DNA of 64,000 bases. Origin: an uncultured Verrucomicrobiae bacterium. GTDB taxonomy: Bacteria; Chlamydiota; Chlamydiia; Chlamydiales; Rhabdochlamydiaceae. Under the pieces are notes generated by a model. That model saw nothing but the letters and a program-made list of their open reading frames with translations, did no database searches and had not been told where the DNA came from. The stretch spans positions 192,001 through 256,000 of the forward strand of contig OY970364.1 of assembly GCA_963718565.1 (NCBI GenBank), in the 5' to 3' direction. Shown here one piece after another: positions 15,146 through 52,967 of this stretch. Each line of letters opens with the position of its first letter. Position 1 is the stretch's first letter. A program made the position numbers and the translations under genes.

Positions 15146-15520
15146 TTAGGGAATAAACTCTCTTTTCTTCGCCCAATATGCAAGCATTCCGCGCCGTGCT
15201 GCAGCTCTACTTTTATCTTTGCCTTCCTGAGTTTTTGCCCCTGTTGATAGGCCTCCATGCATTCGACAACGGCCATTAATGGGTTCTCCTGTTTTGGGGT
15301 CCACCACGACCTTAGCTTTGCAAGAACGGCCACTTCGGCACTTGGCACCACATAAAGGCCGGTCCTTTTTCCACAAACTTTCGTTTTTCCAATGAGCCGA
15401 ATGATAAATATCTAACATCTGAGCTTTTCTGTGATTGGAATAACTCCATGGCTCCCAAGGTTTATACTGCCAGGATCTAACCATAATTCCCTTCCATTGA
15501 TAAGAATGGCTTACCACCAA
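15146..15520 (-). CDS. HGGxSTG-domain protein
   Basis: CGAKCRSGRSC...GRCRMHGGLSTGAKTQEGK. Confidence 0.85.
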   Translation of the reverse strand: MVVSHSYQWKGIMVRSWQYKPWEPWSYSNHRKAQMLDIYHSAHWKNESLWKKDRPLCGAKCRSGRSCKAKVVVDPKTGEPINGRCRMHGGLSTGAKTQEGKDKSRAAARRGMLAYWAKKREFIP

Positions 15521-15726
15521 TAATGTCCCGCTTCTCTGGCCATTATTTTGAATTGGTCATCTTGCTCTCTGTGTTTTTTCATCGCTTTAGATGCCCTCTC
15601 TTTTGCTTTATCATTGCCTTTTTCTTTGGCTACAAGCCACCGCCTAACATAATCCATATACTTACATGCTCTTTGATTTTTGAGCGCCTCAACCTTCTCA
15701 AAATCATAAAAGTCATACTTGTCCAT
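15511..15726 (-). CDS. small hypothetical protein of element A
   Basis: GGAG RBS; overlaps HGGxSTG gene; charged and helical. Confidence 0.6.
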   Translation of the reverse strand: MDKYDFYDFEKVEALKNQRACKYMDYVRRWLVAKEKGNDKAKERASKAMKKHREQDDQFKIMAREAGHYWW

Positions 15727-15796
15727 TTTGGTTCTCCAATTTTATGCACCATGGCTGCGGTGCTGCTTTCTCCTTATTTCTCTACTCAACTCCCTC

Positions 15797-15869
15797 GCTA
15801 AAGTTGCTAAACTGCTAAAGCTTCATGGCCTTAGATAAAAAATCCTTAGCAGATTAGCAGGTTTAGCAG
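15797..15869. repeat. origin-like repeats: GCTAAA x3, spacer, TTAGCAG x3
   Basis: Three direct copies then three inverted copies at the 3' end of the primase gene. Confidence 0.6.
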
Positions 15870-18202
15870 CTCTCCATATTTTGTGGAGGTTTAATCGTCC
15901 ACGCTTCCTTGCATTTTTTGTCATTGATGACGAGATTTGGAGTGGGGATGACCCACCCATGGCTTGCAAGGATGGACATGATCGTTCGAGCACGGTCGGC
16001 ATTCCTGATACCAAGAGAGAGGGGGCCATATTGGTAAATCGTGCTGAGTCCAACCTGTTTGTAGTTTTCTTTCCATAACCACTTGAGTAAGGAGGCTGCA
16101 CAAACGAGCTCTGGATTGATCGAGACAAATCCATGAATGCGTAGTCTCTCTGTGAAATAGAATTGGATAAGAATGATTGCTCTTTGGATGTACTCAGAGC
16201 TAATTTCTTCTACATCGGGATTTTCAATAAGTGCCAGAGTGCCGCTAAGCCGTAGAACATGTTCGGGTGCTTTACTGGCGAACCGGCGAATTGGGTGATA
16301 TGGTTTCCCCTCTGCCAGATCCTCTTCGTTTTTGTTATGAAAAGCGATCCAAATCTTTTTGGCATCGCTGCTTAGAGGGAGAAGGATTGGTGAGATTTCA
16401 TTCTTTGGATCAAGAGGTGAATTTTCCTTGGCATTCGCATCCAACAGGCGATTCATTGCGTCATTGAATCGTTTGATTGCGGGATCCGCAGAGAGATCTT
16501 CTTCGACATAGGCTCGACTTCCAGCCATAGACTGAGGAAACACAATCAGACAGCGAGGTAGGAACCCTTGCAAATCAAAGATGGGGTTACTCAGGAGTTG
16601 GCTGAGAACCACTTCTTGCATCATCAAGTGGAGAGAAAGTCTTTTTCCATAGAGGAGCATGTCACCATCGCCAGCCCTCATCCACGAAATTTCTTTACCA
16701 TCCCAAAGAGACGATAGCCCAGCCAACGTTTTTAATAGGTTGTCGCGATTCATAGCGTGCCCCCCAAAGAATCTTCCTCCCTCATCGCTAAACAAACCGA
16801 TACTAGGTTGGCCATCTGCAGAGAAGTATTTAACGATACCTTCGTAGGTGGGCTCTTCAGCAAGAACTAAGGGACGCAGGGGAGGTGCGGGAGGCGGTTC
16901 GGAAAAAGTCGAATCTGAGGAAGCACTTTTGATCCATTCTTTCTTCCTCGCTTCCCAGGCTTCCTTGTGGATCTGGAATTTTGGGTATTCTGTTCGATAG
17001 CAATCAGCTAACATTTTCTGCCAGGAGAATATCGGCTTTAAAGCTATTTTATCCGTGGCGCTCTTTCGATCCCCTGACTCTGCAATAGTGAGATAGAACT
17101 CCGAAAGAGGATTTTCTCGACCGTCGATGGTAATGTTTGCATGGGCTTGAGTTGCAAGTGAAGTTGCCGCTAGAACGCTCTGGGCGCATATGCTATCCGG
17201 TGCTTTGATAACTCTATGCATCGCTTGTGCGGCAGATCCGAGAATGGGGCCTAGCGCATCCATTGGAAAAGGCTGAGGAGATCCTATTTGACGATAGAGG
17301 GGAAGAGGGTCCACTGGACAATCACTTTCTATTCCTAGAAAAGTGATCAGATCACGGACTGTTTTCAATTCGCAATGCTTATGGAAACATTTAAATCCAT
17401 GGTCCGGATAGCCATTTGTGTTCGGTTCGTAATATTTTGTGCCTGTGTCTTGTTGGGAATGAAGCTGTGCCCATGGACATCGGATGCTCCAACATCCCTG
17501 TGGATGCGATTGTTTTTGGAGCAGCATCCCATGACGTTCGAGTGCTTCTAGAACAGGGTTATTTTTTGCCGATTCATTTGTGGAAATAGATGGCGTTGGG
17601 TTGGGAGAAAGTGAGATCCCAAACGCATCCAGGAATTGTTGTAGAGAAAAGGGTTGTTTGCCACTCTCTTGGATGATTTTAGTGAGAAAGGGATCTTGTT
17701 TTTGGTGGAGGAACCCAGGAAGACGCATGACCCTAGCAAGATCATGTACTTGGGGATCTCCCTGAAAAAAGCCGATTAGCTTTTTTTGGATGAGGGAAAA
17801 ATGTTGCAGTTCAATGCCTTCAACAACCCAATAAGCATGAAATCGACTGGGACTCGATTCAACGATGATGTGAGGAGATAAAGGAGCCGAAAAGATGGGT
17901 TCAAGAGGACTTCCATCAAGGTCGACAAAGACTGCTGTGACCTGAGTGATATTCTCTGTTTTGCGCCCTTTTCCATCGGTTTGATTGATTGTGACGAAAA
18001 TGCCCGCTCCCTGCTCTTGAAGTCGTATAAAATTGTTTGCGAATTCATCGAGTGTCCCGCAGAGAACTTGGGGCTTGACTAGCGTTTCGGAATTTTTCCG
18101 ATCGTTAAAGATTTGGAAGGCAAAAATAGATTCCTCATCCCGTGAAAGATGGCTTAAGAATCTTTTTGCCGTTGTGAGATCTTGCGAGTTATAATGGGTC
18201 AT
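15863..18202 (-). CDS. RepB'-type primase fused to DUF3987 helicase-like domain
   Basis: VFVDLD, VESSPSRFHAYW, RVMRLPGF; CPW...CFHKHC Zn motif; AESGDRKS, DEGG, GFLPRCL. Confidence 0.85.
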   Translation of the reverse strand: MTHYNSQDLTTAKRFLSHLSRDEESIFAFQIFNDRKNSETLVKPQVLCGTLDEFANNFIRLQEQGAGIFVTINQTDGKGRKTENITQVTAVFVDLDGSPLEPIFSAPLSPHIIVESSPSRFHAYWVVEGIELQHFSLIQKKLIGFFQGDPQVHDLARVMRLPGFLHQKQDPFLTKIIQESGKQPFSLQQFLDAFGISLSPNPTPSISTNESAKNNPVLEALERHGMLLQKQSHPQGCWSIRCPWAQLHSQQDTGTKYYEPNTNGYPDHGFKCFHKHCELKTVRDLITFLGIESDCPVDPLPLYRQIGSPQPFPMDALGPILGSAAQAMHRVIKAPDSICAQSVLAATSLATQAHANITIDGRENPLSEFYLTIAESGDRKSATDKIALKPIFSWQKMLADCYRTEYPKFQIHKEAWEARKKEWIKSASSDSTFSEPPPAPPLRPLVLAEEPTYEGIVKYFSADGQPSIGLFSDEGGRFFGGHAMNRDNLLKTLAGLSSLWDGKEISWMRAGDGDMLLYGKRLSLHLMMQEVVLSQLLSNPIFDLQGFLPRCLIVFPQSMAGSRAYVEEDLSADPAIKRFNDAMNRLLDANAKENSPLDPKNEISPILLPLSSDAKKIWIAFHNKNEEDLAEGKPYHPIRRFASKAPEHVLRLSGTLALIENPDVEEISSEYIQRAIILIQFYFTERLRIHGFVSINPELVCAASLLKWLWKENYKQVGLSTIYQYGPLSLGIRNADRARTIMSILASHGWVIPTPNLVINDKKCKEAWTIKPPQNMESC

Positions 18203-18266
18203 ATCCGTTCCTGTATGTTAGAGCCGTTGAGTTTGCCAACCGACGGCTCGAGTTTATTTTTAGTGT

Positions 18267-18464
18267 TCATCTTCTTGCCTGTTTTTCGAGCCAAGCGATG
18301 AAGAGATCCCTGCGGACTAGTACTTTTCTCCCAACGCGACGAAGTGCTGGTGCAAGTCCGTTACGATGGGCATGGAGGATGTAGTACCTGAGCATCGGTA
18401 CCGTAAAACAAAAAGTGGGATCCGAAGCGATCTGCTTCACTGTGCAATATGTTTGATCAGTCAT
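18267..18464 (-). CDS. small Xis/AlpA-like DNA-binding protein (element A)
   Basis: LRYYI...NGL...RRVGRKVLV...FIAWLE; similar to 30593 and 50683; AGGAG RBS. Confidence 0.75.
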   Translation of the reverse strand: MTDQTYCTVKQIASDPTFCFTVPMLRYYILHAHRNGLAPALRRVGRKVLVRRDLFIAWLEKQARR

Positions 18465-18618
18465 GATCAGTTCTCCTGAGGTTAGAAGCCTAATTCGGCT
18501 TTGTTAATAAACCCCAGTATTAGGCAGCACAAAGCCAGGCCGATACGCAGTAAAAAACGGGTGATCGGAAAATTTGGAATAGAAATCGATTTAACTGACT
18601 AAGCTAGAATCTTATGTG

Positions 18619-20061
18619 TTAAGATTTTCGTGGAAGATTAGAGGATTTCTCAACTAGCTGACGCTTGAGTTCTTGAAGTGAGATGGGGTCATGGTAAATT
18701 GGAATAGGATTTTCTCGCTGATCCCGCAGATGTTTTGGAAGCATTCTCAAATTCTTATGAGGGTGCGGGAAAAGAAGGAATGCTTCCGGTAAAGCAGGAG
18801 TATTCCCATGAGGAAGGATTTTTTCAGAGGCTCGTCTGAATCGTTCTGCAAGATTATCCATGGTCAGATTTGGAAACAATTTTTGTGGCCTTTTCAAAGG
18901 TTGATCTCCGATGTATTCCTTCAATAAATCAGCTAGCCCTTCCGAGTGCTCTATTTCTTCGTCATCTATCAGAAGTCCATTTTGAATAACGTCCTCTGTC
19001 GTCACTTCCAAAAGCCGCTTGATGGAATAGGAGCGAGTTCCATTTTGCGAAATGTAGACCATGATCCAAAGCAGCAGAACAATTTCTCCTTCGATATCAT
19101 GGTCTAAGGGATCTGCAATGAATTGATCAGCAAAGTGAAGGATATATTTCCCGAATGTATTTCGGTCAATTGCATAGCCCGATTTCCATCGAGAGGTAGA
19201 GGTAGTTTGTTGTTTAGATTGTTTAATTGAAACGAGCCCTTGCAGAAGGATCTCTTGCTTTTCCACACTCCATGTGACCCCCGAAAAAATCAGCTTACGA
19301 AGTTGGATCTTCCATAGTCTTTGAAAGTCCATGAAATCTCGCCTTTTTCCAGCAGTAATCGAATGAGACACCTGGCGGTAGGCTTCAGCCACGGAGATGC
19401 CTCCTTTGGGAGCAAATCTCTGGTTTTCTAGCGTTCTTCTTCTCACTTTGAGATCTTGCTTGAGATATTCTTTTATTGTTTGTAGATAATGGTAGTGCGC
19501 CCTTTGATGGAGATTCCGCATTACTGGTTCGAGATCTTTAGAATATTCATTAACAGCGCATAATTGATTGATCAGAGTGTGAGCTTTATTTTCTTTTTCG
19601 TACCATTCGATCCATTTGGACATCTCGGCTTTAGAGGCACAGAAGAGGAGCGCCTCTAATTTCTCCTCTTCGAGCTTACGAAGATTCTCCTCGGGGGGGA
19701 CGATTTGAACAGCCCAGGGTATATGCCAAATGACTTTTTTTGCTTCAGAGGGAAAGCAACGAATGCGACATTCCGGATAAAAGCGAGGGGTGAAAACCAT
19801 GCTGATGAGAGGAGCTGATGTGGCGGCCTCTCTTACCTTTTCATTGGGCGAGAATCTCTGTAAAACATATCGGTGGGTCTCCATCATGGTCTTTAATGCT
19901 CTTTCTGACATAAGCGGACGCCCAAGGATCAAATAAATTTCGGAAAAGAAAAAGTAAAGAACATTGGATTTTTCTGCGACCTTGGCATGAAAGTCTTCGA
20001 GATTTTGCAAGAGGGATCTGATCCCTCTCGCTAATTTTTGGTGTTTAGTCAGCGCCATCAT
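18619..20061 (-). CDS. hypothetical protein; C-terminus resembles a degenerate tyrosine-recombinase fold
   Basis: 480-aa ORF overlapping the integrase stop; G-T-R...LLEV..EDV...LLKEY...KLFP pattern. Confidence 0.6.
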   Translation of the reverse strand: MMALTKHQKLARGIRSLLQNLEDFHAKVAEKSNVLYFFFSEIYLILGRPLMSERALKTMMETHRYVLQRFSPNEKVREAATSAPLISMVFTPRFYPECRIRCFPSEAKKVIWHIPWAVQIVPPEENLRKLEEEKLEALLFCASKAEMSKWIEWYEKENKAHTLINQLCAVNEYSKDLEPVMRNLHQRAHYHYLQTIKEYLKQDLKVRRRTLENQRFAPKGGISVAEAYRQVSHSITAGKRRDFMDFQRLWKIQLRKLIFSGVTWSVEKQEILLQGLVSIKQSKQQTTSTSRWKSGYAIDRNTFGKYILHFADQFIADPLDHDIEGEIVLLLWIMVYISQNGTRSYSIKRLLEVTTEDVIQNGLLIDDEEIEHSEGLADLLKEYIGDQPLKRPQKLFPNLTMDNLAERFRRASEKILPHGNTPALPEAFLLFPHPHKNLRMLPKHLRDQRENPIPIYHDPISLQELKRQLVEKSSNLPRKS

Positions 20062-21166
20062 CTACTCCTGGCGATGGATCTGAGGCGATGATCTCGCTCA
20101 AATTGGTTGTATTGACCAATTTCTCATAAACTTTTGTCGTCAATTGTTGTACGCTGGCTGCATCTGGATGGCAGTAACGAAGCAGTTGAGACAAAGTTCT
20201 GTGGCCTGTGGCGGCGGATAATTGAATATTAGAAGTTCCTGATACAGAAGCTATTGTAGCAAAACAGTGCCTCAAATCATGCACGCGGAAGTCTTCGATC
20301 GTTGCTTCTTTTAAAGCTTTTTCCCAAGGCTTGCGCAAAGTCAACTGACCAAAACGGGTTTTGCTTGCGAAAACCAAGGATTTTTCTGGATGCTTTTTGG
20401 CGAATAGATCCTTAAGCATTTCCAGTACATCACCAACGATGGCCAAGACACGTGGGCGTCCATTTTTTGTGCTTTTCAAATGGATCAAACCATTTTCAAG
20501 ATCCACTGCGTTCCACTGTAGACTCAATAATTCGCCGCTTCTTGCACCGGTTGTGAGAGCCAAAATGACGAATGGGAGAAGCAGCCTGTTGAAACTTTTT
20601 GCACATGCTTTCAGTAGACGCGAGCACTCATCAGGAGAGAGAGTTCGGTTTCTGCCCTCTGCTTCCTTAAGCTTTTTAACGCGGGACATTGGATTTGATG
20701 AAATCCACTCACACTCTTTCACTCCATGGCTTAGGACGGCTGAAAGAGAAGCAAGGTAGCGATTGACGGTAGCCTCAGTGCGCTTCTTTCCTTTTGGAAG
20801 AACTTCATCAAGGAGTTCCCTCCGGTGTCTTGAGATGAGATCTGAAGAAACATGGTTGAGAGTGAATTTCCCCAGTTTCAATTTCCACCAGTTGAGATGG
20901 CGGAGCACATCTTCTGCACTTTTGATGGAGGGAAGAATATCTTGAATGTAGCGGTCGATAAGCTCAGCTAAAGTGTGCTTTTGTCTGCACTTCTCAGGAA
21001 AGTACAGACCTTGTCTTCGCTTTGCCTCTTCCTGAATTGCCCAGTCTTTAGCTTCCTGATGTGTTGGAAAAGTTTTATATTGGATTGGAAGCCCGTCATC
21101 AGGACGGATCATGACGCGGTAGCTGTTAGTACCGTTTTTATTTTTTCTTTTTTGTATTGTTGCCAT
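20045..21166 (-). CDS. tyrosine integrase (element A)
   Basis: GARSGE, TKNG, HDLRH, GH, RY catalytic set; N-terminal arm-binding YRVMIR. Confidence 0.95.
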   Translation of the reverse strand: MATIQKRKNKNGTNSYRVMIRPDDGLPIQYKTFPTHQEAKDWAIQEEAKRRQGLYFPEKCRQKHTLAELIDRYIQDILPSIKSAEDVLRHLNWWKLKLGKFTLNHVSSDLISRHRRELLDEVLPKGKKRTEATVNRYLASLSAVLSHGVKECEWISSNPMSRVKKLKEAEGRNRTLSPDECSRLLKACAKSFNRLLLPFVILALTTGARSGELLSLQWNAVDLENGLIHLKSTKNGRPRVLAIVGDVLEMLKDLFAKKHPEKSLVFASKTRFGQLTLRKPWEKALKEATIEDFRVHDLRHCFATIASVSGTSNIQLSAATGHRTLSQLLRYCHPDAASVQQLTTKVYEKLVNTTNLSEIIASDPSPGVDDGAD

Positions 21167-21330
21167 CTGTTCATCTCCATTTGTGGTTTACGTGAACAGA
21201 CAGTTCTGATGGGATGAGCTGACACGCATAAGATGTCAGCGTGCCGTATAAGTGCCATAAGGTAAAATGTTAAGTGAAAAATTCACATAACTTTCATTCT
21301 AACTTATTGCAGAACAAGCACTTAAAAATG

Positions 21331-21377
21331 TGGGGCAACCTGGACTTGAACCAGGGACCGACGGGTTATGAGTCCGC
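21331..21377 (-). repeat. att site: 3' half of tRNA(CAT; Ile2 or Met), A/B junction
   Basis: Reverse complement GCGGACTCATAACCCGTCGGTCCCTGGTTCAAGTCCAGGTTGCCCCA: anticodon loop, T arm, acceptor 3' strand; no 5' half. Confidence 0.9.
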
Positions 21378-21603
21378 TGACGCCCGCGCCACTTCCCAGC
21401 AGCTAACTCCCCGAAATCATAGCGGAAAGCACCCCTTTCCATCCATCGCAAACTATCGCCATTTATCGCCCTTTTTTGTATGCCAGTGGTCCACAAATGG
21501 TCCACAGACAAAAAATTGAATTCTATGAATGGGCTTTCTTGTATATGATGAATACCCTTAACGAGAGCTAAATATTCGAACCGGGAAAACGAGGGACTAG
21601 CGC

Positions 21604-24600
21604 ATGAAATGGGTACTCAATTTAATCAGCTTCCTACTGTGTTTACAGGGTCTGGAAGCGTCAACTAGCCAAGTGTACCTAGGATCGCGCGAAAGTGATC
21701 CAGCAAGTTTAGTAGAGAATGTGAGTACCATCCATGGCGATTATACAGAGGTTGAAGTTGATCTTACTGTTTCATCTCCAGATTCTCTAGTTTTATCTAG
21801 GTTCTATAGCAGTAGAGACACACTCCAAACAGCTAATTTTGGTGGATGGCGTTTTAATCCTCACTGCTTTCTTTCTATTCAGAAAGATCCGAAAGGAAAA
21901 TCCTATACAAGCGCTGAAGGAAAGTTCGAGCGCACTTATGTCTATGTCGGCAATCCTGATGGAACAATCCTGACCTATGTCGGCTGGCAGAACACTACCA
22001 ACCCCTCCAAGAAGTCCCTATTTAAAATTGATCCGGAAGGGGAGGTAGCAGGAATAGCGAATACAGCGAAGGGAACCATCAGCTGCTGGACAAACCTGAA
22101 AAATAACGAACTCTATTTTGATCCCCAAACGAATGGTTTTGAACTGCTTCTCTGTTCAGAAGGAAAGCGTTCTTATAGTAAACATCCTTCCCTCGATGTC
22201 TATTTTATCACGCAAGAAGTCCTTCCGAGCGGTAATAAAGTCTTCTATGAGTTCGATGAAAAAGGACAGCTCTCTTTCATCAAAGAAACCAACGCTTCAG
22301 AGAAGAAGGTGTTGGCTTGGATTAAAATTGAATATAGAAATGGGATTCACATTGAGACAAGCGACGGAAAATCCGCTGAATATCATTTCCAGCAAGATTC
22401 CTCAGGCGCAATGCTCTTAAGCGAGGTGATTAGGTCTCATAAGCCGAGCTTATCCTACCAATACCAAGTTGTGGGCAATCAAGCTCTTTTGACTAGAAAA
22501 ACTCTGCCTGAGGGACGTTTTGTCCAAATCGACTACTCCACTGATAAAGGGCAGAAAAACAAAGTTAGATCTGTGACTACCCCAGCTGGATCAGGAGGAA
22601 TGGCAAACGTCTTATTCTCCTATGGAGACGATTACACAGAAGTCGATGGTCCTGGAGAACGCAAGGCAGTATATCGATTTGATGATGATTACCAGCTCGT
22701 TGCTGTAGAACAATGCCTAGATGGATCTCCTTATCGGATTCACAAAAAGTCATGGGGGACAAAGAGCGATGCTGGAAACTTGATCTCTACATCTGTCGAA
22801 GACGCGGGTGGCAACATTTTCTACTACAAGCACTTCACTTATGATAGCAAAGACAAAGGAAATATTGTTGAAGAAAGAGAATATGGAGACGTCATAGGTT
22901 TAGGGGCCATCTCTTTGAATGTTGATGACAGTGGCCTTGTCACAAATCAAGATGGACACATCAAGAATTATGCCTATTTCTCTGGCAAAAACACTCATGG
23001 TTTTTTCCAAACAGATGCCAAGGGAACTGGAGTCAAATATTGGTACAAGAAAGGGACTAATCTTCTCCTGAAAAAGTTCATTTTGACAAAAGGGTCCCCT
23101 GATTCGGAAGAAGAAGACTATAGATCGGGCATAAAAGAGAGACATTTTTATGCCTATAACGATGATGCTGCTCTCATTCAGGTTATCGTCGATGATGGCA
23201 AAGAAGGACCCCTCAAAGACGATTATGGGGTTACCGAAAGGACTGTCACTCGCATTTCTCCAAAGCAAGAGCTCCCTAATGTCGGAGCGCCTGAAGTAGT
23301 TGAACAGAAATACAGCTCTACAGATGGGAAATCGGAATTTCTCCTAAGAAGAACTGTCAATCAGTTCGATGGACAGGGGAACATCGCTTCCCATGCCATT
23401 TATGACGCAGATGAAAACCATTGCTATACGCTTACCAAGGGATATGAACGTGGACTACTTGTTTTTGAGACCGATCCTCTTGGGAATGAGACGCATTACT
23501 CTTACGATGGGAATCAAAATCTGATCCTTGAAACCCACTCAGACACCGGCATTTCTATTGAATATGGCTATGATTTAAGAAACTTTCCTATTTACACCCT
23601 GGAGAAAGACCGAGCAGGGAATCGATTTGGAACACAAATCAGCTATGACCCCGCAGGACACAAACTCTCGGAACTCGATCGATATGGGAATGAGACGATC
23701 TATACTAATGATTCTCTGGGACGTCCCACCCAAATTACCTATCCAGAAGCCAGCGATGGTACTCGTTCTTCTGTAAGACCCACATACACTTATACCTACG
23801 ACCTATTTGACAATCCTATCTCTGTCACAGATCCAAAGGGAAGGACACTTGTAAGATCTTACAACGTCCATGGAAAGCCAATCGAGATCAATCATCTCAA
23901 TGGAACCAAAGAAGTGTTTAGATACGATAGCGGAGGGAATCTCCACCACTACTATGGCACGGATGGCCTTCTGCAAGTGTTTGCTTATGATTACAAAGGA
24001 AGATTAAACAAGCTCGAGCACTTTAAGAGGGGAAGTAAGAGCTCTAATTATGCCTTCAAGGAAACAACTTGTAGCTATGGAGCCTTCCATAAAACTTCGG
24101 AAACTGATGCCAGAGGTGAGCAAACAACCTATACTTATGGTCATTCAGGACGTCTAGCATCTTTGAGTAAAGACAAACAGAAGGTCGAGTTCATCTATGA
24201 CAGTCTTGGAAGAACTCGTGGAGTCAAAAAGTGGAAGTCTGCCAAGACCTTCACCTTGGACATCAAAGAATACGACCTTTTAGACAGGGTTATTGAAGAG
24301 CGTACCGAAGATCAAACAGGCAAAGTGCTACTCAAAAAAAGGTACGTCTACAATGATGCAGGGCAGATTACTCAAGTGATCGGCTATCCGCAGAATAAAG
24401 AAAGTATCTTACTCAAATATGAATATGATGGATTTGGTCGTCTTTACCAGGCAACCAATGCTGCAGGGCATACATCAACTATCGAGTATGATGACGCTTT
24501 TGTTAACGAATGGGGTCAAAGAACATGTAAACGTACTCTGATTGACCCGATTGGCAATCAGACCGAAGAGATCTTTGATATAGACGGTCGATTGATCAAA

Positions 24601-27361: not shown

Positions 27362-27383
27362 GTTTTCTAGAGAGGAACTAAAA

Positions 27384-37327: not shown

Positions 37328-37366
37328 TGTTCGCATATTTGGAAAGAGCAACCTTCTTTTTTAATC

Positions 37367-38846: not shown

Positions 38847-38851
38847 GGTTT

Positions 38852-40659: not shown

Positions 40660-40672
40660 GAAAATCTACCTT

Positions 40673-42806: not shown

Positions 42807-42837
42807 GTTTACATCGCAATCAAGAGGGATCAATAAA

Positions 42838-44275: not shown

Positions 44276-44298
44276 AACAAGAAGAGGTTTTTCATCCT

Positions 44299-45000
44299 AT
44301 GGATAAGGAAAAGAAAATGATCGGAATTCTAGCAGGGATGGGACCAAAATCAACTGGGCCATTTGTTGACCAAGTGGTGCGTGCATTTCAAATGTTGAGT
44401 GGAGCCAAAGATGATATCGATTTTCCTCCTATGATGATCTATTCTCTTCCAACACCTTTTTACGTAGATAGACCTATCGATCATAAGCTTATGGAAATGA
44501 CTATTTGCGAGGGACTGAAGAAATTAGAATCTTGTGGCGTTGCCTTCATTGCTATGCCTTGCAATACAGCGCATCGTTATTTTCAAACGCTAAAACAGTG
44601 CATTCAAGTTCCTCTGCTGAATATGGTTGAAGTCACTTTGAGCCGTATTCCAAAATCAGCTAAAAAAGTTACTGTGCTAGGAACTCGATCGACGCTTGAG
44701 TCAGAGGTTTATCAGAACGGGCTTGCTCATGCTCGGTTGAATTGTGTTCTCAATCCTGGATGGCAAAAGAAAATTGATGAAATGCTCTTGAGTATCAAGG
44801 CTTCTTCAGACCATCTTGTCGCTACCAAGTTATGGAAAGAGCTTAGTGAAGAATTACGAATGGCGGAAATAGACACCATTGTTCTTGCATGTACCGATTT
44901 AAATGTTGTCATCAAAGGAGCGCATTCATCGATCAAAATAATTGATTCTTCCCTTGCTCTTGCTGAGGCAATTGTTCATCAATGGAAAGCGATTCATTAG
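44299..45000 (+). CDS. aspartate/glutamate racemase family
   Basis: GILAGMGP, MPCNTAH, LACTD two-Cys active site. Confidence 0.92.
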   Translation: MDKEKKMIGILAGMGPKSTGPFVDQVVRAFQMLSGAKDDIDFPPMMIYSLPTPFYVDRPIDHKLMEMTICEGLKKLESCGVAFIAMPCNTAHRYFQTLKQCIQVPLLNMVEVTLSRIPKSAKKVTVLGTRSTLESEVYQNGLAHARLNCVLNPGWQKKIDEMLLSIKASSDHLVATKLWKELSEELRMAEIDTIVLACTDLNVVIKGAHSSIKIIDSSLALAEAIVHQWKAIH

Positions 45001-46632
45001 CCTTTAACGTGATTCAAGGCGAGAAATGGGTGTGAAGCGATAGAGGTACACATTCAATAGGTTAGAGTGCATTAAGACTATGTTTCACACGTATACACCC
45101 TGTACACGTAGGATACAGGGTGGGACAAGTAATGGAGCGGGTCTACTTTTCTATCTGTGAGGACGCAATCACATAAAAGCGCTTTGATTTTGCTTCTGAT
45201 ATCGGTTTAGCAGAGCAAGTGAACTTGCCTTCAGCATCTTTCTTCAACAGTCCTCGATCGAAAAGGGTTTGTTTTACAAATTTCTCTTCTCGTCCCTTGC
45301 AAACTTCTCTTTTGAAGGTTTCTGGGAAAATATAGAACTCCATTCCTTCAGAGGTATGTTTTCGGAACCCAGATCGGTGATGAGTTCGGTATCCAGTCGA
45401 TGCTTCATCAGGATTATTAGCATACCAATCCGTAAAACGCGATTCTCCATGCTGTTCGAGGAAATATTCTAAATCGGCAAGTAATTGGGTGACTTCTTGA
45501 ATATCAGTACTGCCAAATACGGCTAGCCAATCGTTGAAACATTTCAATGCAGCCCGATGTGCGTCGCCTGGATTCCACCCGATTGCAGCCAAACCATCTT
45601 TGCCGAGATTGCGGGTTATGTTGCAGGCGATGGCGAACTCTCCAGCTGCGGCAACCAGGGCAAATCTCGCTGCAACTCGATGAATTTGGCCTGTTGCTTT
45701 TGGAGGCAGTGCCTCGTTCAAGAAACCTTCCATAGCCTTTTTTACAAAGGCTTTGGCATCGTGAATGTTTTGGGTAAGGATTTTAAGAAACTCTCTTCCA
45801 GCTGCGCCATAATATTTTTGAGCGTTCTTTGCTAGAGTATCTGCAAAAACTGAACCATTCGGAAGCCCATGCAGTTCCTCAAATAGCCCGTGCTTTCCTG
45901 TATCAGCAGGAATTTCTGCCAAGCGAATCTCTTGTCCAGCTTTTGATTTTTTGCCCGCCTGTTCCATGTGTGTAGAAAGGCCGATCTCTCCACTTGATAG
46001 AAACAGCACTCTCCAAGTCAATGGGTCTCTCAACCCCCCGTCCGCTTTAGCTCTGTTTTTGCCTGAACCATTGGCTAGCATATAGGCCGCATCACCAACG
46101 TCAAATGGGCTCATTTCTCCTATCTCATCCAAGCAGAGGATTGTGTCATTATGCTGGAATGCAATCCCTTCCAGTCCATTTGTTGTTGATTTCCACTTTC
46201 TCATAAAATCTTTCGATCCATAGACAGAAGAGCTTACGCGAAGGGCTGTTGTTTTGCCTGAACTACTGTGCGAATAGAAATGAAATCCTCCTCCCTCCAT
46301 TTCCATGAGATGTAGAAGTGGACCTGCAAACGAAGCACTTACAGAGAAAATTAATCTCGAATTGCCTACACAGAAGTCTGCAACGTGCTCTTGCCAATCA
46401 AGAAGAGTGCCTGAGGTAGCATAAGCGACAAAGTGGCAGGTTTTGCCTTGGATCACGATTTTTTCTTGCCCTAGATCACCTATATTCAAGTCAGGTAGCA
46501 CAAAGCCCTGCTTATGCCATCCAGTGCGAGAGACGCAGCGAGCTGTGTTTACAGGAGAGGAACGCTGCACGTAATCAGCAAGCCATTGCCTTGCTCGCGG
46601 CGATGTGGAAATTTCAAGACCAGCATTCATCA

Positions 46633-47811
46633 CTCACCTTACGCAAAATGGGCTCCAACCATATCGCAACCAGTTCTGAACCGCAGCCGTTCAAGTTCTA
46701 AAAATGCCATTCGATTTGCCTTTATCAGTAATTGATATTTCAGAGCAAAATGATTCAAAAAAGTTTGAGTTCGGAGAAATTCCAACTTGCAATAAGCGAT
46801 GATTGATGCAAAAATATGGTTCTTTTGAGAGCGCAGAACCTTAGTCGGCGATTTCTCAAGGCTAGTGTTCTGCTTGATCGATTTGTGATATTCTTCTATG
46901 CGCCACCGTTTTTGGTAGATTTCGTAGATTCGGTCAGCACTACTTTCTAAGTCATTTGTAACAAGGTATAGAGTGCCTGTAGAGCCGTCTTCGTTTTTGA
47001 AGATCTTTGTAATGAGTGCTACAGAAAAAGACATGTCTTTTAGCCAGACTATTCTTTTTTCTCCATCCTTGAGTGGTAATGCATTTAGATTTTGGTACTG
47101 ACCATTTTTTCTGTCCTCTTCAGAAAGAGCGACCAATCGATTAGCTTTGATCCCAATTACAAACTTCTTTTTCATATCATAATGAATAAACTCCATATTT
47201 TTTTTCGCTCCGAACCAATTATCAGACAATATATAGTCAAATTTAACCTTATTGGTTACAGCTTGGGCAATCATAGATCGAAACATTTGATTTTTACTGA
47301 CTGAAGACTGTCTTTTTACTTTTTTGCTGGCGACATCACAAAAAAGCACGTCTTTATAAATAGGCTCATAAGCAATGGGTAAGGCAATATCTCCGTAGCG
47401 AGCAAGACATGATAAAAGGTTGACCCCCTTCACACATCTTCCCTTGGCATGCGAGTAATGCCAACAAATAATCTCATTTTCGTCCGTGTAGGTCTTCTCT
47501 TCAATCGTGTCATCAAAAATAAGCACTCCTCCTACATCTTGTTCAATCTTGCGAATTTCCGGCTTGATGTATTCCCATAGCTCTTTGGATGAAAATTCAT
47601 TGCTGTTCAAAAATCTAGTAATTTTGTCATGACTAATCCGGCCTTCTAAGAGATCTGAGAGACCAACTGCTGTTGCATATTGATTCTGAGCAATCAAGTA
47701 ATCCGAATAGATATCGAGTAGTCTGTTCATTTTTTCTCCAAAAAATTGAACAAGACTACGAAAAAAAGACAGGCCTTATCAAGAAATTTTTACCGATTTG
47801 CGTAAGGTGAG
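46633..47811 (-). mobile_element. IS701-like element, full copy (transposase 46639..47730)
   Basis: Same IRs as 6730; direct repeat TTCATCA; three amino-acid differences from the 6811 copy. Confidence 0.93.
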
Positions 47812-48460
47812 TTCATCAGTGTACTCCTGAATTCAGCGCAATCTTTGGCCAACATTTCCATCGGCATCGGCCAAGTGTGATGAACTCCGTCAGCATCATC
47901 GAATTCAATGAGTTTCCCGTGATTTAACCCATTTTCGTCACGAATGCGGGCTGTGATTTGAATAGGAGACGAAATCCAAGTTTTACCTCCTTCATCTATA
48001 TGCCAAAGTCCATTTTCATCGACTTCAAAAGGGTTTTCTCCATGGATGATGGAGACATTTTCGACAGTCAGCAATTCAAGTTCCTTCCGTAGAGCTAAGA
48101 TAGCCTGTCTTCTTTCATAAAAGACCGCTTCGGTTTGAACTTGAATGGAGCTTTTGTTTTCACTCATTGGCTTTGTGTCAAAATCGCTTTCCGAAAGGAA
48201 TTTGTCATAGGCATGGATATCGCACATCAGCCGTGTGCTTTCTCGATAGATTTTCTCTTGGAGTATGGAGGTTTTAAGCTCGCGATTATTCTTCGCTTTA
48301 CCGACGGCAGTGAATAGCTTGTCATCGATGGGTATTTCTGAAATCTCAATCTGCAATTTCCAGGGATCGAGCAGAGTTTCCATTGAGCTTTTCTGTGCAG
48401 GAGGAGTTGCATACCCTTGATACCCGTCTATCCATACAGCACCTAATCGCATCAGCTTAG

Positions 48461-50527
48461 CCCAAGTTCGCGGCTTTCCCAGAGGAGCTATGCAAATTCG
48501 TCACTACATCTTGAATTAAACGAGTGTTTTATGACCTCTGAGAATTGAAGACGATAATCCCAGCGCCCTGTAAATCTCTATTTGCTCGCCTTCTGCCTTT
48601 GTAGTGCTGCGGTGGTAGAGCACCCTGCCTTCTGTTGTCTTGGCCCGCACAGTTACTCGGACTCGAGTAATCATGATATTACGTATTGTCTGCCACAAAT
48701 AGTTTATCCCTTTTCGAATTAATTGGTGCCTGCAGTGTTGGATTAGATGGTAGGCAAGTATGGTGATCCATAAATGCCCGTCCACTCGATGTTCCTTCTG
48801 GTGATAGACTGGACGCAATCCTAATGAGGATTTCATAAATCGAAACGCATCCTCAACGCTTCTGAGAACATTATACAATTGCCATAACTCTTTTGCTTCC
48901 AAATCGGTTCGATTTGTTCTCAGAAAATAGGAGCCAGTGAGCTTTTCTTGCATTTTTTCTTCGATCACCTTCCATTCCACAGCAATTGTGGTGAGCCCAT
49001 CTTCTGAAGGAATTGCATTGACTTCATAGCATCCTGAAATTCTCTTATGCTTTTCCTTGAGCCGACCTACCCGTTCAAGCACTTTGTTATGCTTCTTGCG
49101 CCCTTTAGGTTTGGAAAGACCATTCGCAAGTTTTTGTAGATCATCTTCAAATCGTTTTCTAAATTTTTTCTTCATCCCTGAGGCGACCGCTGCTTTTGCT
49201 TCAGATTCGCAATAGAGCCAATTTTCCTCATTACCATCCTGACTGATCAAGGCAGCTTTTACTAGGTCATGCTGATCACCTACTGAGACTAATTGTCCTT
49301 CAAATTCAACAACGGGAGGATCTTGTCTTGCTGAGACAACATACGTATATCTATTCTTGCGTAACCAGGTCAGATTCTCTTCGGTAGCAATCCCTGCATC
49401 CAATACAATAGTTGGCTTGATTAGAGACGAGTGAATACTTAGGCTCGCGATCATTGTTTGTAGGGTTTGGGGCTCTGAAGCATTTCCTGCAAGTAATGAG
49501 GTTTTGATGAGAAATCCGTGCTCATTCATGACTAGCCCTATAGTAATGAGAGGGCAATCATTTCGTTTTTCTTTCGAAAGACCATAGGCAGCTTTTGGAT
49601 TTGCCTCAGCCCGCCCTTCTGTATACGTATTGGTTAAATCGTAGAGAGCTATTGTACTTTTGTATCCATGAAATTGCTGTTCGATGGTTTCTAAAGCTGT
49701 TTCCAACCCGTCTTTATGAGACAGCAACGTATCGCTGATTTTATAGAGCTTGTGCAAAGTAGTTTTTGTAAAGTCGAAATCAAGTAATTCGCCAAGACCA
49801 CTGCTAGTGCATAGCCACCGATAAGCTTCCCTTTCGCTGCTTGGGTGTACAGCCCTGGCAACGATCGATCCCAAGGCAATTGCGGCATCTGTTTTTGAAA
49901 GGCCTAGTTTTTGCAGCTGTTCCGGCAGTTTGAGTTGATTTCCCATCTGAAGTAAGAGATGTTCCGCACCAACAGACCGTGGTTCAGTCTGTTCAATTGA
50001 ATGAACGTCGATATTGACAAATTCAGGTAGTAGATCTTGTTTTAGTTGTTCCGCGTTGTCTCCTGGGTCGGACAAACGACGCACAATCTGCGAGGTGTAA
50101 GATTGGGCTAGCTTTTGAATCTCTTCTGGATAAGCGAATAACGATTGCGCACTTGTAAGAATATCTTCAATGCATTGAGCGAGAAGTGCATGCTGTTCTT
50201 CTGGGAGGTTGATTTCGGCTCCCATGTATAGAAGCGCGCGTTGGCGCGGGCCTCTATCAGTCCTCACGGATTCAACCAAGTGAAAAGCAGAGTAGGTTTT
50301 TCCGCTCTTACGGTCTGTCTTGAGGGTTTTCCTTATATACATGCCCTCAGATCTTACCGATGGATCGAATTTATTTAAACATGAAATAATTATTTTACAA
50401 ATTTTCAGTCACTACAAATTCGCAAAAACAGCAAAGCACTAAAAATAAGGGACTTACGAAAGCAAAGGTTGATTTTAATGTTGTTGATTATGAGGGACTT
50501 AGGTCAGCTCTCTCGGGCGAACTTGGG
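48461..50527 (-). mobile_element. IS1634-like element (transposase 48516..50342)
   Basis: IR CCCAAGTTCGC/GCGAACTTGGG, direct repeat TTAG; LVESVR..GPRQR, YDLTNTY, LDAGI, VEDAFRFMKS.LGLRPVYH. Confidence 0.9.
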
Positions 50528-50682
50528 TTAGCTTTAATCGGAGGGGGCAGTTTTGTTTTTACTCTTATTAAGAGAGCATTTTTTGGGAAATCATTCCCAT
50601 TTTTTTCGTTTGATGGTATGTTCATTGTGTAACCTATTGCGTATAAGAGCATCGAGCTTGTCCATCTCGATGCTCTTTTTTT

Positions 50683-50880
50683 TTAGTTGCTTTTGTTTCT
50701 TTCCTCGACCCAGTCAAAAAATGCTTCTTCGTCGATCAAAATTCTTCTCCCCACACGTTTAAAAACTGTGTGGAAATTATTAAATTCGCCATTAAACACG
50801 TAATATCTAAGGGCCGCAGCAGTCGGCCACGTATGAAATTGTGGCCACTTCGTCAACGGGATCATTTTCTTCATCACCAA
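50683..50880 (-). CDS. Xis/AlpA-like DNA-binding protein (element C)
   Basis: WPTAAALRYYVF...KRVGRRILIDEEAFFDWV; AGGAGG RBS. Confidence 0.78.
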   Translation of the reverse strand: MVMKKMIPLTKWPQFHTWPTAAALRYYVFNGEFNNFHTVFKRVGRRILIDEEAFFDWVEERNKSN

Positions 50881-50974
50881 CCTCCTATTGGTTTGTTTTG
50901 TAATGAATGGCCCTACATTGGCATTTAATGACGAAAAAAAAGAGAGATGGTCAATAGAAGTATCCCCATTTGAC

Positions 50975-51049
50975 GACGAGGGAATTTTCTCTCGAGAAAA
51001 GACATTGACGAGGGAATGTGTCGACTAGAAAATGTGCTGACGGGGGAAT
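50975..51049. promoter_or_regulatory. three GACG(A/G)GGGAAT direct repeats spaced 32 bp
   Basis: Copies at 50975, 51007, 51039 upstream of the xis-like gene. Confidence 0.6.
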
Positions 51050-51130
51050 GCTTTACGTGTGGTGATAGCTGAGATTGTGATATTAGCTAGGGATAAATAC
51101 TTTCAGCGGGCTATCGAAATAGGAGAGGAA

Positions 51131-51874
51131 TTATTTTTTAGGATTGTAGTTGGGATTCAAATCGCGAATCCAATCTTCGATCGTTTTGGGGTCAATTGCA
51201 TTAGTTTTTCCCATGATTTCTTGCGCCATAGACACAGCTTTTTTAAAAAGAGGCTGTTTCTGAATCGTTTGAAGAGAGAGCGTTTTATCTGCCTTCCAAA
51301 GACTTGCAGCAGCAACTCGGCAAAGCAATTTTCCTTGTTGTTCGGGACGGAACCGCCCCATGTCGTATGCAAGAATACCACGCTTTAAATCTTCTTCCTG
51401 CCCTGGTTGGGATAATTTTTGATTTTCTGGCTCTTGAATAGGGAATGGCAGATTTTTCGATTTCATCCATTGAACTACACTGGAAGCGGGGAGATTTCGT
51501 TCGCTAGAACTAAAGTCAAAGGGGTCTGGTTTGGGAAAGCCTCGTTCTAACAAATCTTCCAAGTTCTCTTCATCTAACCAACGAATGAAATGAGGGATTG
51601 GATTGGTATACTCCTTTTGAGGAAAATGCACTCGAAGATAACTTAAAAATTCTCGATGAGCTTCGTCTACGGTTTTTCCCAGTGGACAATCTAGAATGCG
51701 CTCGGGAATTACGCCATAAAACAGTAAAATGATTTCGTGAAAAGACAGCGTATCCACCCTTTTCCAATATTGGAGTTCTTTGTTTGTCAGGCTAAATAAC
51801 CTTTTGACAATTGAAAGGGGAGATTCATTCTCCAATGAATTAGCTTCTGTGTGATTTTTAGTCTTAGTTTTCAT
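51131..51874 (-). CDS. hypothetical protein, putative regulator similar to 29755..30477
   Basis: Overlaps int stop; KLLCRVAAASLW...KTIEDWIRD. Confidence 0.65.
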   Translation of the reverse strand: MKTKTKNHTEANSLENESPLSIVKRLFSLTNKELQYWKRVDTLSFHEIILLFYGVIPERILDCPLGKTVDEAHREFLSYLRVHFPQKEYTNPIPHFIRWLDEENLEDLLERGFPKPDPFDFSSSERNLPASSVVQWMKSKNLPFPIQEPENQKLSQPGQEEDLKRGILAYDMGRFRPEQQGKLLCRVAAASLWKADKTLSLQTIQKQPLFKKAVSMAQEIMGKTNAIDPKTIEDWIRDLNPNYNPKK

Positions 51875-52967
51875 GGAGTAGTTCCTCGAGGCGATTGACG
51901 AGTTTTCGTTTATGCGCGTTTGCTAAATGGGAATATCGTTTCGTGGTCTGCAAACTTTTATGGCCTAAAATTTCGGCCACTTCTCGAGTAGAGGTTCCAT
52001 CCATGGTTAAATAGCTTGCAGTTGTGTGACGAATGTCATGGAAGCGAAAGTCTTGAAGAGCGGCGCGCTTGACGACGGTCTCCCAGGCAGAGCGAATGCA
52101 CACAGGCTGATTAGGGTCTCTGGGAGAGGGAAAGAGCAAGTTTGATCCTTCAATAGGCCGATTTTTAATCATCTCGAGAATTTGATCGCTGATAGGTAAT
52201 GTCCGATTATCGCCGTTTTTCGTATCGAGGAGGAGGAAGATGCGATTCTCTAGATCGACCTCTCTAGCTCTTATGCCTAAAATTTCGGATTTTCTGGCTC
52301 CAGTCGTTAAAGCAATGAGAAAAATGAGGAGAAGGTCTTTGTTTTGGCTCCGTTTGCACTCTTCTGTAAGCCTAATGAGTTCCTCTTTGCTTAAGTAACG
52401 GACTCGGCCTGGAGGAGATTTGGGCTTTCTTACTTTGAGGCAGGGGTTTTCGTTCATCCATTGCCATTCGGTTACTGCAGTGCTAAGAACATGAGAAAGG
52501 CTCGCCAAGTATCTAGAGACGGTGCTGTTGGAGCGCAGTTGTTCTGGACGGATGTTTTCAGCAAGCATCTTATCGCGCACCTCGGCGATGACTGATTGGT
52601 TGAGACGGCTTAGCTTAAGATGGCCAAGTTCTGCTTCCCATCGATTGAGGTGTCTTGCGACGTTTTCGCCATCGTTCGTTTTAAGAGGAAGAATTTCTCT
52701 TCGATAGCGACGAATGGCATCAGCAACTGTATGTTGATCGGCTTTTGAAAAGCTGACATAGAGTCCCTTTTCAATTTGGCCTTCTGTGACTCGTTTCCAA
52801 CGCTTGGCATGAGTGAGGCATTTAAAGTTTTTTGATACGGGCTTGTGCCCCTTGATCCGAATACGAACTCTATAACGGTAAGTTCCATCTTCGAGTGGCA
52901 GGCGATCAATGCCTGGAGGAATATTCATGGCGTCTCCTTGTGTCTGTTTTTTCAAAGAGTTAGCCAT
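51864..52967 (-). CDS. tyrosine integrase (element C)
   Basis: GARKSE, TKNG, FHDIRH, LGH, RYSH. Confidence 0.95.
   Translation of the reverse strand: MANSLKKQTQGDAMNIPPGIDRLPLEDGTYRYRVRIRIKGHKPVSKNFKCLTHAKRWKRVTEGQIEKGLYVSFSKADQHTVADAIRRYRREILPLKTNDGENVARHLNRWEAELGHLKLSRLNQSVIAEVRDKMLAENIRPEQLRSNSTVSRYLASLSHVLSTAVTEWQWMNENPCLKVRKPKSPPGRVRYLSKEELIRLTEECKRSQNKDLLLIFLIALTTGARKSEILGIRAREVDLENRIFLLLDTKNGDNRTLPISDQILEMIKNRPIEGSNLLFPSPRDPNQPVCIRSAWETVVKRAALQDFRFHDIRHTTASYLTMDGTSTREVAEILGHKSLQTTKRYSHLANAHKRKLVNRLEELLHEN

Follow-up and report, generated by a model that had tools for sequence, protein, structure and literature searches.

An integrase gene, an alpA-like gene and a primase gene, integrated next to a tRNA, form the core of P4-like satellites, phage-inducible chromosomal islands (PICIs) and capsid-forming PICIs. 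Phage-inducible chromosomal minimalist islands (PICMIs) are 6.1-kb satellites of Vibrionaceae, for which the accessible part of the report describes int, an integrase-overlapping gene (IOLG), alpA, a DUF3987 primase gene and small accessory genes, integration at the end of fis with 17-bp repeats, and carriage by a virulent phage with neither capsid nor terS genes in the island itself (10.1101/2023.07.18.549517). According to the same portion of the source, the IOLG, whose function is unknown, comprises 13 unrelated families and is required for excision, and alpA was modelled by the authors as Xis/TorI-like (10.1101/2023.07.18.549517). The tycheposons of Prochlorococcus, in the accessible part of their description, feature a tRNA-specific tyrosine recombinase beside a tRNA together with excisionase and primase/helicase hallmark genes, occur in PICI-like and cargo-carrying forms, and can stand in tandem, parted by partial tRNAs, with the islands growing from the tRNA (10.1101/2020.12.28.424599). 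The locus considered here lies on contig OY970364.1 in a stretch of 64,000 nucleotides, called the window, which comprises bases 192,001-256,000 of a single-contig 2.28-Mb genome with 43.6% G+C; coordinates are window positions unless marked 'genome'. It carries three copies of a small integrase-led backbone with different replication genes, and the region is probably a tandem array formed by the accretion of islands that integrated site-specifically at one tRNA(CAU) gene, since seven co-oriented copies of the tRNA 3' part span 106.6 kb.

The seven copies of this 47-nt 3' part were located in the whole genome at genome 165,060-271,626, and the array makes up 4.7% of the genome, which is 95% complete by markers. 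The final copy (genome 271580-271626) lies inside a normal 75-nt tRNA(CAU) at genome 271579-271653, and most of the seven are flanked by family integrases or integrase remains. Copies of the 47-52 nt tRNA 3' part delimit the islands, none having been found at the distal end of island A. Three array units fall within the window, namely island A (15116-21325), element D (21378-38594) and element C (38647-53090). The core at the A/D junction (21326-21377, minus strand) is a 52-nt exact repeat of 38595-38646, so that the two bound element D on either side, and the 47-nt part of this core matches the real tRNA's exactly. These bounding repeats had been overlooked in the sequence-only reading of this DNA, and were recognized from ARAGORN calls and exact-repeat cores.

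ARAGORN reported two 'tRNA-Met' genes of 68-69 nt in the window (21330-21398 and 53095-53162) and a similar one at genome 184047-184114, and only one of the two window calls reached the Rfam tRNA threshold, weakly, with 34.7 bits. All of them are chimeras in which the 5' half of a D-type far arm is joined to a displaced tRNA 3' core. The 5' half has a poor acceptor stem and a stunted D arm and is conserved in elements of other genomes, and the promoter-like stretch upstream resembles that of the real tRNA. Clean direct repeats of 46-48 nt, derived from tRNA-Met, tRNA-Phe or tRNA-Asn, were found in three relatives from other genomes, where they bound islands of 11.7, 7.5 and 14.3 kb. No native left border of the array could be defined, and the relatives' own flanks are variable.

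The order integrase, overlapping open reading frame (ORF), gap, small helix-turn-helix (HTH) gene and replication gene is present three times, as had been noted from the sequence, at 21166-15863 (A), 28638-31932 (B') and 52967-45143 (C). The integrases number four rather than three, as IntD (37367-38458, minus strand) of the same family had been missed. IntA, IntB, IntC and IntD share 38-52% pairwise identity, IntB and IntD being closest with 52.5%; all match PF00589 (Phage_integrase), which like PF00239 or PF07508 serves to recognize a PICMI integrase, with E values of 7e-26 to 2e-32, and all keep the R-K-H-R-H-Y catalytic residues. The small HTH proteins (65-97 aa) are mutually similar by blastp as well, with E values of 1.2e-16 for B-C, 1.6e-9 for A-C and 6.3e-5 for A-B. 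The integrase gene overlaps the next ORF by 17 nt for ORF480 in A, 20 nt for ORF240 in B' and 11 nt for ORF247 in C. Homology among these three ORFs was considered and rejected, with hhalign probabilities of at most 4.5%, and no relationship of the ORFs to the integrases was detected either. By analogy, the overlapping ORF is regarded as the positional equivalent of the PICMI IOLG, and the earlier comparison with an int-alpA-primase core can be extended, as the gene order equals that in the accessible PICMI account including the IOLG. As had been claimed, no capsid, tail, relaxase or type IV secretion system (T4SS) gene was found, nor a terminase, in Pfam and PHROGs scans of ORFs between 15146 and 52967; these scans did not reach ORFs below 50 aa, many of the overlapping ORFs or any protein whose family is unknown.

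The fold of the HTH protein was assessed on HTH-A, whose model (pLDDT 90.7) shows the order strand-helix-helix-strand-strand-helix. Structural alignment with 6hn7_B, 7lw0, 2kvv, 8c3t, 4j2n, 8dgl and 1y6u gave Z scores of 5.8-7.0 and rmsd values of 1.9-3.2 Å over 53-59 residues, a Z below 8 not being decisive. The top matches were a PICI Rpp/TerS entry, TerS DNA-binding domains, a putative excisionase, the GIsul2 excisionase and BldC, with Pukovnik Xis, RdfS and Tn916 Xis also among them and MerR proteins thereafter, and the Foldseek E values were weak (0.2 or worse). PF12728 (HTH_17), which as an alternative to PF05930 defines the PICMI AlpA in the accessible part of the report, scored 19.6 bits on HTH-A, under the 27-bit cut-off, whereas the fold agrees with excisionases; the profile matched 9 of 18 members of the HTH family at E up to 0.1. 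A search of the HTH profile against PDB sequences returned nothing below E 1. As far as a domain of about 60 aa allows, the structure predicted for the small HTH protein is an excisionase-type winged helix, in line with the Xis/AlpA-like fold suggested beforehand.

Element D accounts for the backbone B', which had been taken for a free minimal island. Judged by conservation, B' forms the inner backbone, 3.5 kb long, of an element of 17.2 kb with two integrases, because the conserved block is sharp, IntD orthologs occur with motif and core, and a second copy exists in the genome. The block (28545-32011, plus strand) has 71-93% identity in the 12 loci that span it entirely and ends sharply at about these positions, with varying flanks on both sides. 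It contains IntB (28638-29774), ORF240 (29755-30477), the HTH gene (30593-30886) and ORF349 (30883-31932), all on the plus strand, and this order is found in 13 of the 15 loci reaching far enough upstream, one of the others being without ORF240 and one having a disrupted IntB. Relatives of ORF349 occur in 18 loci of metagenome-assembled genomes, full-length matches showing 63-92% identity, and most of these records are titled Chlamydiae, Chlamydiales, Simkaniaceae, Rhabdochlamydiaceae or Parachlamydiaceae, with a few Verrucomicrobia or 'uncultured bacterium'. The host itself, a point left conditional earlier, is chlamydial judging by the titles of the records that contain relatives of its rpoB and ORF349. 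IntD, the tRNA-proximal integrase (Pfam E 2.4e-32), has orthologs of 79-93% identity in 6 of the 18 loci, convergent to the backbone and 4-8 kb downstream of it, and the motif-core arrangement is seen beside IntD orthologs in five loci.

From one end to the other, element D thus consists of the far arm with its pseudo-tRNA half, a first cargo region, the backbone, a second cargo region, IntD and the near arm with its core. The distal arm (21378-21514, minus strand) comprises the pseudo-tRNA 5' half, the promoter-like stretch and the motif GTGGACCATTTGTGGACCAC (21487-21505), and the same arm was found upstream of IntB in six loci of other genomes. The motif recurs directly repeated at 38499-38517 in the proximal arm, which together with the core spans 38499-38646 on the minus strand. 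Element C has a related, distinct pair at 38761-38779 and 53006-53024, for which 0 matches are expected by chance; for the motif pairs of D and C together the expectation is 0-0.01. The paired motifs are interpreted as putative integrase arm-type sites. At the right end of element C, a tRNA core, the pseudo-tRNA 53095-53162 and a distal arm with its motif at 53251-53269 (together 53091-53278, minus strand) open the next two-integrase element, which extends past the window; the second IntB backbone occupies genome 262068-265362, and next to the real tRNA an IntD ortholog is located at genome 270352-271434.

Element D has two cargo regions. Cargo 1 (21604-27641, plus strand), encoding an RHS-repeat protein (RHS_repeat, 1.4e-32), a small ORF and a CPCC protein (Cys_rich_CPCC, 4e-30), lies in a region variable between D-type loci. 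Cargo 2 (32144-37327, plus strand), with GNAT, a GrpB-APH-GNAT fusion, an ABC transporter and APH by Pfam, is 88% identical in one other locus (L002). A 57-nt piece of the variable cargo-1 region (27794-27850) is conserved at 82-86% in five other D-type loci and contains TTAAGTGAACAGACAG, which resembles 21188-21203, 20 nt upstream of the IntA start. A 21-nt repeat, TTTTnCACnGACGCCATTTTT, occurs at the left edge of the backbone (28548-28568) and upstream of HTH-B (30506-30526); it may be a candidate shared operator, a lead only, as two occurrences of its 12-nt core were reached in 8 of 100 shuffles. GGCGATA was rejected as a shared binding motif of the D arms and backbone, with nine occurrences against 4.85 expected and 6 of 100 shuffles reaching nine.

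Island A (15116-21325, minus strand) is the compact, PICMI-like form of 6.2 kb, delimited by DNA conservation with two other genomes (G250 and G062). All its genes lie on the minus strand. IntA (20045-21166; Phage_integrase 7e-26) is overlapped by ORF480 (18619-20061), which has homologs in 24 of 400 Chlamydiota genomes and no Pfam, PHROG, NCBIfam or PDB relative. The small excisionase-type HTH gene (18267-18464) is followed by the primase-helicase gene (15863-18202), whose product combines a RepB'-type archaeo-eukaryotic primase with DUF3987 (DUF3987 2.8e-79 and RepB_primase 1.2e-11 by Pfam) and also matches PHROG DNA helicase and primase families. The terminal gene (15146-15520) encodes an HGGxSTG-domain protein (NCBIfam NF041373, E 4e-15) that is conserved in both relatives and in a Legionella element. 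Directly behind the primase-helicase gene sits an iteron-like inverted cluster (15797-15867) of 3 x GCTAAA, 17 nt and 3 x TTAGCAG, with arms of 27 nt that are 81% complementary. This cluster is nearly invariant in three A-type islands and is proposed as the candidate replication origin of island A. The idea that ORF480 is a cryptic second tyrosine recombinase came from a language-model lead (0.92-0.93, few shared features) and was dropped, as hhalign against a 53-sequence integrase alignment gave 0.3% and the PDB profile search was empty.

The DNA of island A is 84.9% identical to G250 over 6,279 nt (window 15119-21379) and 83.8% and 82.6% identical to G062 (window 15116-21379), and rpoB of the same two genomes has 77.7% and 75.2% identity to that of the host. 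Their islands abut a normal 74-nt tRNA(CAU), and the left flanks of the island are unrelated between the three genomes. Because the island DNA is 84-85% identical compared with 75-78% for rpoB, the comparison indicates that island A spread horizontally and is younger than the divergence of its hosts. The island has open frames throughout and looks intact. Contigs of four public runs cover parts of it at 85-99% identity; no run contains more than 0.25 of its sampled words, and none is on record as RNA. Joints in these contigs from 21505 to 21324/6, a step back of 180-182, most likely reflect the core-then-motif order in the proximal arms of other elements.

Element C (38647-53090, minus strand) measures 14.4 kb between the cores 38595-38646 and 53091-53142. 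IntC (51864-52967, minus strand; Pfam) overlaps ORF247 (51131-51874, minus strand; homologs in 9 of 400 genomes), and the small HTH gene, related to HTH-B and HTH-A by blastp, follows at 50683-50880 on the same strand. Here the integrase-ORF-HTH order of the earlier description stood, and the DUF927 gene proved to be broken. The DUF927 primase/helicase gene (45143-48452, minus strand) is split into a C-part (45143-46633) and an N-part (47790-48452) by a DDE transposase gene at 46639-47730, so that Pfam DUF927 positions 79-281 and 1-80 are divided over two ORFs. A second DDE transposase gene (48516-50342, minus strand; DDE_Tnp_1 by Pfam) lies between HTH-C and DUF927. In three relatives (G117, G172 and G111) the ORF247-IntC synteny is kept and DUF927 is whole, about 170-190 nt after the HTH gene. 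Because of the two insertion sequence (IS) insertions, element C is probably replication-dead. Its cargo (38852-45000, Pfam) comprises Schlafen/AlbA_2-HATPase_c_4, NUDIX, a CoiA-like nuclease, an IS3-type IS, tRNA_bind, GNAT, SAP and a racemase, of which the Schlafen and NUDIX proteins are PADLOC candidate-defence matches.

Three direct 16-nt repeats with a ATTCCCTCGTC core (51006-51050) are located between ORF247 and HTH-C and may form an operator upstream of the HTH gene. Two IS types are present in two copies each (2417-3528 and 41536-42647; 6811-7902 and 46639-47730), with equal ORF lengths and identical or nearly identical Pfam scores; each type has one copy in element C, one of these being the copy that splits DUF927. 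The integrity of single reading frames has to be judged with caution in this genome. The rpoB gene (genome 312992-314454) is matched in six pieces in different frames, compared with one open frame of about 1,250-1,290 aa in four relatives, so the assembly probably carries indel errors, and single frameshifts here, without raw reads, are therefore no proof of pseudogenes. The DUF927 break is of another kind because a whole transposase gene sits inside it. A split P-type ATPase at 57159-59776 is perhaps the same indel artefact as that in rpoB.

Further features of the array and its target were recorded. A TPP riboswitch (8157-8253, 73.9 bits) precedes a thiamine gene set at 8286-15107, which encodes a THI5-like protein, a ThiD-type kinase, a ThiO-like oxidase, ThiG, ThiF-rhodanese and an AIR-synthase-related protein. 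The thiamine pathway may be island-borne cargo, because the set sits between two tRNA cores of the array. A RhuM-family gene in the array (5622-6656) matches the PADLOC candidate PDC-S05 with E 8e-159, and a second one (Pfam) was found in the tRNA-Phe island of genome G146 (L051 4747-5850). The genome has three normal CAU tRNAs (271579-271653, 693689-693762 and 693770-693844), one of which we take to be initiator-like by its features; the target of the islands could therefore be a lysidine-type tRNA-Ile2 rather than tRNA-Met. A further family member lies at genome 688678-693529, where an integrase 46% identical to IntA adjoins the two CAU tRNAs at 693.7 kb and an HTH-A-like ORF is found at a distance of 4 kb.

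The distribution of the backbone was surveyed in a sample of 400 scored Chlamydiota genomes, one further genome being impossible to score. The HTH profile matched 154 of the 400 genomes and 103 of 212 genera, with up to eight matches per genome, and the ORF349 profile matched 30. Of 20 ORF480 loci, 18 have a family integrase next to ORF480 and 16 have an HTH gene after it; within the short flanks RepB'-DUF3987 was seen in eight and DUF927 in two, and wider stretches confirmed both pairings. A single ORF480 family thus pairs with either replication protein across Chlamydiota, which bears out the interchangeable replication slot inferred from the window. A fourth replication type, a DnaG zinc ribbon with AAA_25, was found in a related island, and a DUF3987-only protein was also seen. 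The succession of tRNA, integrase, overlapping ORF, HTH and replication gene recurs in other Chlamydiota, so that by its sequence the backbone belongs to a phylum-wide family.

A record outside the phylum, NZ_LR134418.1 of the gammaproteobacterium Legionella adelaidensis, contains at 235.9-243.5 kb an integrase with 50% identity to IntD beside a 220-aa ORF. The HTH protein encoded there shares 40% identity with HTH-B, and an HGGxSTG protein shares 39% with the terminal gene product of island A; a toprim primase is present too, and a tRNA(CAT) lies 4 kb upstream. This element differs in its primase type and is annotated only as hypothetical proteins and an integrase. The likeness hints at exchange between unrelated amoeba-associated intracellular bacteria. 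The best plasmid-record match of IntB was this Legionella record and no chlamydial plasmid.

These relatives also bear on a very improbable alternative, in which the modules are decayed, immobile leftovers of prophages or ICEs (integrative and conjugative elements) and the shared order is a deletion remnant. The IS damage of element C, the frameshifted family integrase at genome 182.8-183.9 kb and the part of the array that matches no complete element are of the kind such decay would leave. Against it, many genomes show this compact order again with the two ends defined, and between chlamydial families the conservation of island A exceeds that of rpoB. The related modules occupy islands of 6-17 kb without phage or conjugation genes: Pfam found no capsid, terminase, tail, relaxase or T4SS gene in 44 of the 69 ORFs of six related islands, the ORFs left aside being those matched by tblastn to backbone genes and several short unmatched ones. 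The cargo found there consists of toxin-antitoxin pairs, an SNF2-methylase-ResIII-PD(D/E)XK set, a VWA-PP2C-kinase set, RhuM, Ntox50 and nucleotide enzymes.

Several observations weigh against reading the region as an accretion array of integrative, replicating islands. Island A has no distal tRNA repeat of at least 13 nt in three genomes, and a search of it for tRNA-derived repeats of 11-13 nt or more found none; of its single arm-like motif (21241-21259) a second copy was not found. The public-run contigs gave no joint of its two ends, contigs being searched and not raw reads. About 23 kb between island A and the next leftward core, which include the thiamine operon, match no complete element. 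The overlapping ORFs ORF480, ORF240 and ORF247 are without known family, and the prediction of an integrase-ORF240 complex scored 0.00, which gives no answer and was used neither way. Some ORF boundaries may be off owing to indel-type breaks like those in rpoB. Finally, ORF349 had no family match in Pfam, PHROGs, NCBIfam or PDB sequences, and its structure matches only generic winged helices, with Z up to 8.2.

Because of these two last results, the label of replication initiator for ORF349 rests on position and a language-model lead, a search with a score of 0.93 that points to HTH_36 and RepA_N clusters; the function is plausible for the modelled protein. The model (pLDDT 64) has an N-terminal winged helix, an unconfident central stretch and a helical C-terminal half. 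With Foldseek and VIA, residues 4-102 matched ORC/Cdc6 and RepA among many regulators, and no known fold was matched by the C-terminal half. The description of ORF349 as iteron-bearing was not borne out, as TRF shows only a 22-nt unit in 2.3 copies with 75% match at 31350-31400, which lies within the ORF in the central stretch without confident modelled structure, and neither TRF nor the inverted-repeat scan revealed a convincing iteron array.

How such islands would pass between cells is bound up with the earlier claim of helper dependence, for which no helper was seen: Phage_capsid PF05065 and TerL_ATPase PF03354 were not found in the host genome, other capsid and terminase families not having been searched, and Microviridae F had no match there either, a result of little weight given that its control matched nowhere. 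Among 129 genomes of the host family, TerL_ATPase occurs in none and Phage_capsid in one. That the islands depend on a helper is accordingly graded as a tentative claim, and phage piracy as described for PICMI is, by analogy, the leading single candidate vehicle between cells. The islands might be true PICMI-type phage satellites, a possibility held with reserve, in which perhaps a virulent undescribed phage of environmental chlamydiae induces excision via the HTH protein. The island would then, equally tentatively, replicate and be packaged as concatemers in unmodified helper capsids. Island A has the order and size of PICMI in the available account (int, overlapping gene, AlpA-like HTH, DUF3987 primase, 6.2 kb), the overlapping genes fall in unrelated families as IOLGs do there, related islands carry defence-type cargo, and the islands are spread across chlamydial families. 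The lack of capsid and terS genes is no objection here, because PICMI, in the same account, has none either. Besides the invisible helper, it counts against satellites that the PICMI-defining fis site is replaced, all elements abutting tRNA(CAU)-derived cores with no Fis-family match among the scanned ORFs, and that pattern scans of IMG/VR, by a method that reaches only fairly close relatives, found no relative of ORF480 or ORF349. The chlamydial phages known to us are small Microviridae, which counts in the same direction. Virulent helpers would escape all genome searches made here.

Somewhat more doubtful is a phage-free movement of the islands as integrative plasmid-like or mobilizable elements with integrase and Rep, by vesicles, transformation or a borrowed T4SS of chlamydial plasmids or ICEs; tycheposons are thought to be partly vesicle-borne. 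The tRNA target, cargo and tandem stacking correspond to what the accessible tycheposon account describes, the replication modules are of plasmid or mobile-element type, and the related backbone in the Legionella record fits exchange among amoeba-associated bacteria. Against this route, no relaxase, oriT-type gene or type IV coupling protein (T4CP) was found in the islands, and ORF349 had no relative by tblastn in 72,556 PLSDB plasmid records. An ICE or an integrative and mobilizable element would carry such genes, and no relaxase, T4CP or T4SS was found in the window, nor the T4CP family PF02534 in the host genome, relaxases not being sought genome-wide.

From the anatomy, attachment repeats, arm motifs, conservation and horizontal spread observed, a cycle can be proposed for the accretion array. 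The integrase and the HTH protein, probably with the product of the overlapping gene, would recombine two tRNA cores and excise a circle, which the island's own primase-helicase or initiator would amplify, in island A at the inverted, iteron-like cluster that follows the primase gene. This circle would then reach a new cell, integrate at the same tRNA and push older islands inward. Excision, replication and the role given to each protein are predictions from gene content and order.

Environmental chlamydiae are confined to the interior of eukaryotic cells, and apart from plasmids and a few conjugative islands little is known of how they exchange genes. Tiny integrating and probably self-replicating islands could account for much of the flexible gene content of chlamydiae, with cargo such as an RHS protein, aminoglycoside-kinase-like and ABC genes, restriction-like systems and toxin-antitoxin pairs. 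The boldest interpretation, considered unlikely, would make them the first phage satellites of obligate intracellular bacteria, PICMI-like islands that pirate a still unknown chlamydial phage and shuttle defence and competition cargo. It is also doubtful, on the same interpretation, that they are transferred between chlamydial families, and perhaps Legionella, inside shared amoebal or arthropod hosts. The pseudo-tRNA arm of the two-integrase variant might, with no greater confidence, rebuild a tRNA-like site at the far end and thereby seed a further integration; the 100-kb stack of tandem islands would find its explanation in this. If the islands are true satellites, they predict an undiscovered phage of chlamydiae; if not, they offer a clean case of tycheposon-like transfer outside the ocean. 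In either case, the swapped replication slot and the unrelated overlapping genes provide comparative material on the function of the PICMI IOLG.

The suggestion of a possibly undescribed family held in part. Full-text literature searches found no description of such islands in chlamydiae, and in the Koestlbacher 2021 paper on chlamydial plasmids 'tRNA' and 'primase' are absent and 'genomic island' appears only in a reference title; the kind itself has already been published as PICMI and tycheposon. With P4-like satellites, PICIs and capsid-forming PICIs the islands share the core of int, alpA-like gene and primase and the site next to a tRNA, and they differ in having no psu/sid/delta, terS/ppi/cpm or capsid genes by Pfam and PHROGs among the scanned ORFs of 15146-52967.

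Set against the available PICMI account, island A has the same parts in the same order at about 6 kb, its HTH protein scoring below the Pfam threshold, neither system has capsid-remodelling or terS genes, and the integrase-overlapping genes fall in unrelated families in both. The islands here differ in their position at tRNA(CAU), their cores of 46-52 nt and their host phylum. Of the primase profiles PF13148 and PF19263, either of which defines PICMI in that account, PF13148 is found in island A, and B' (ORF349) and C (DUF927) have neither; at least four types of replication gene replace one another in these islands. D-type islands also possess another integrase, carry cargo to the left and right of their backbone and include a pseudo-tRNA arm, and a helper phage is known for PICMI whereas none is for these islands. 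Tycheposons, compared by description with islands known from genes alone, are matched in the tRNA(CAU) next to a tyrosine recombinase with full and partial tRNA flanks, in the excisionase and primase/helicase hallmark genes with or without cargo, and, as far as the accessible account goes, in tandem stacking and the coexistence of PICI-like and cargo forms; the integrase-overlapping gene and the two-integrase layout do not appear in that account. In a phylum for which no earlier description was found, the islands are, by their gene content and order, PICMI- or tycheposon-like integrative replicative islands.

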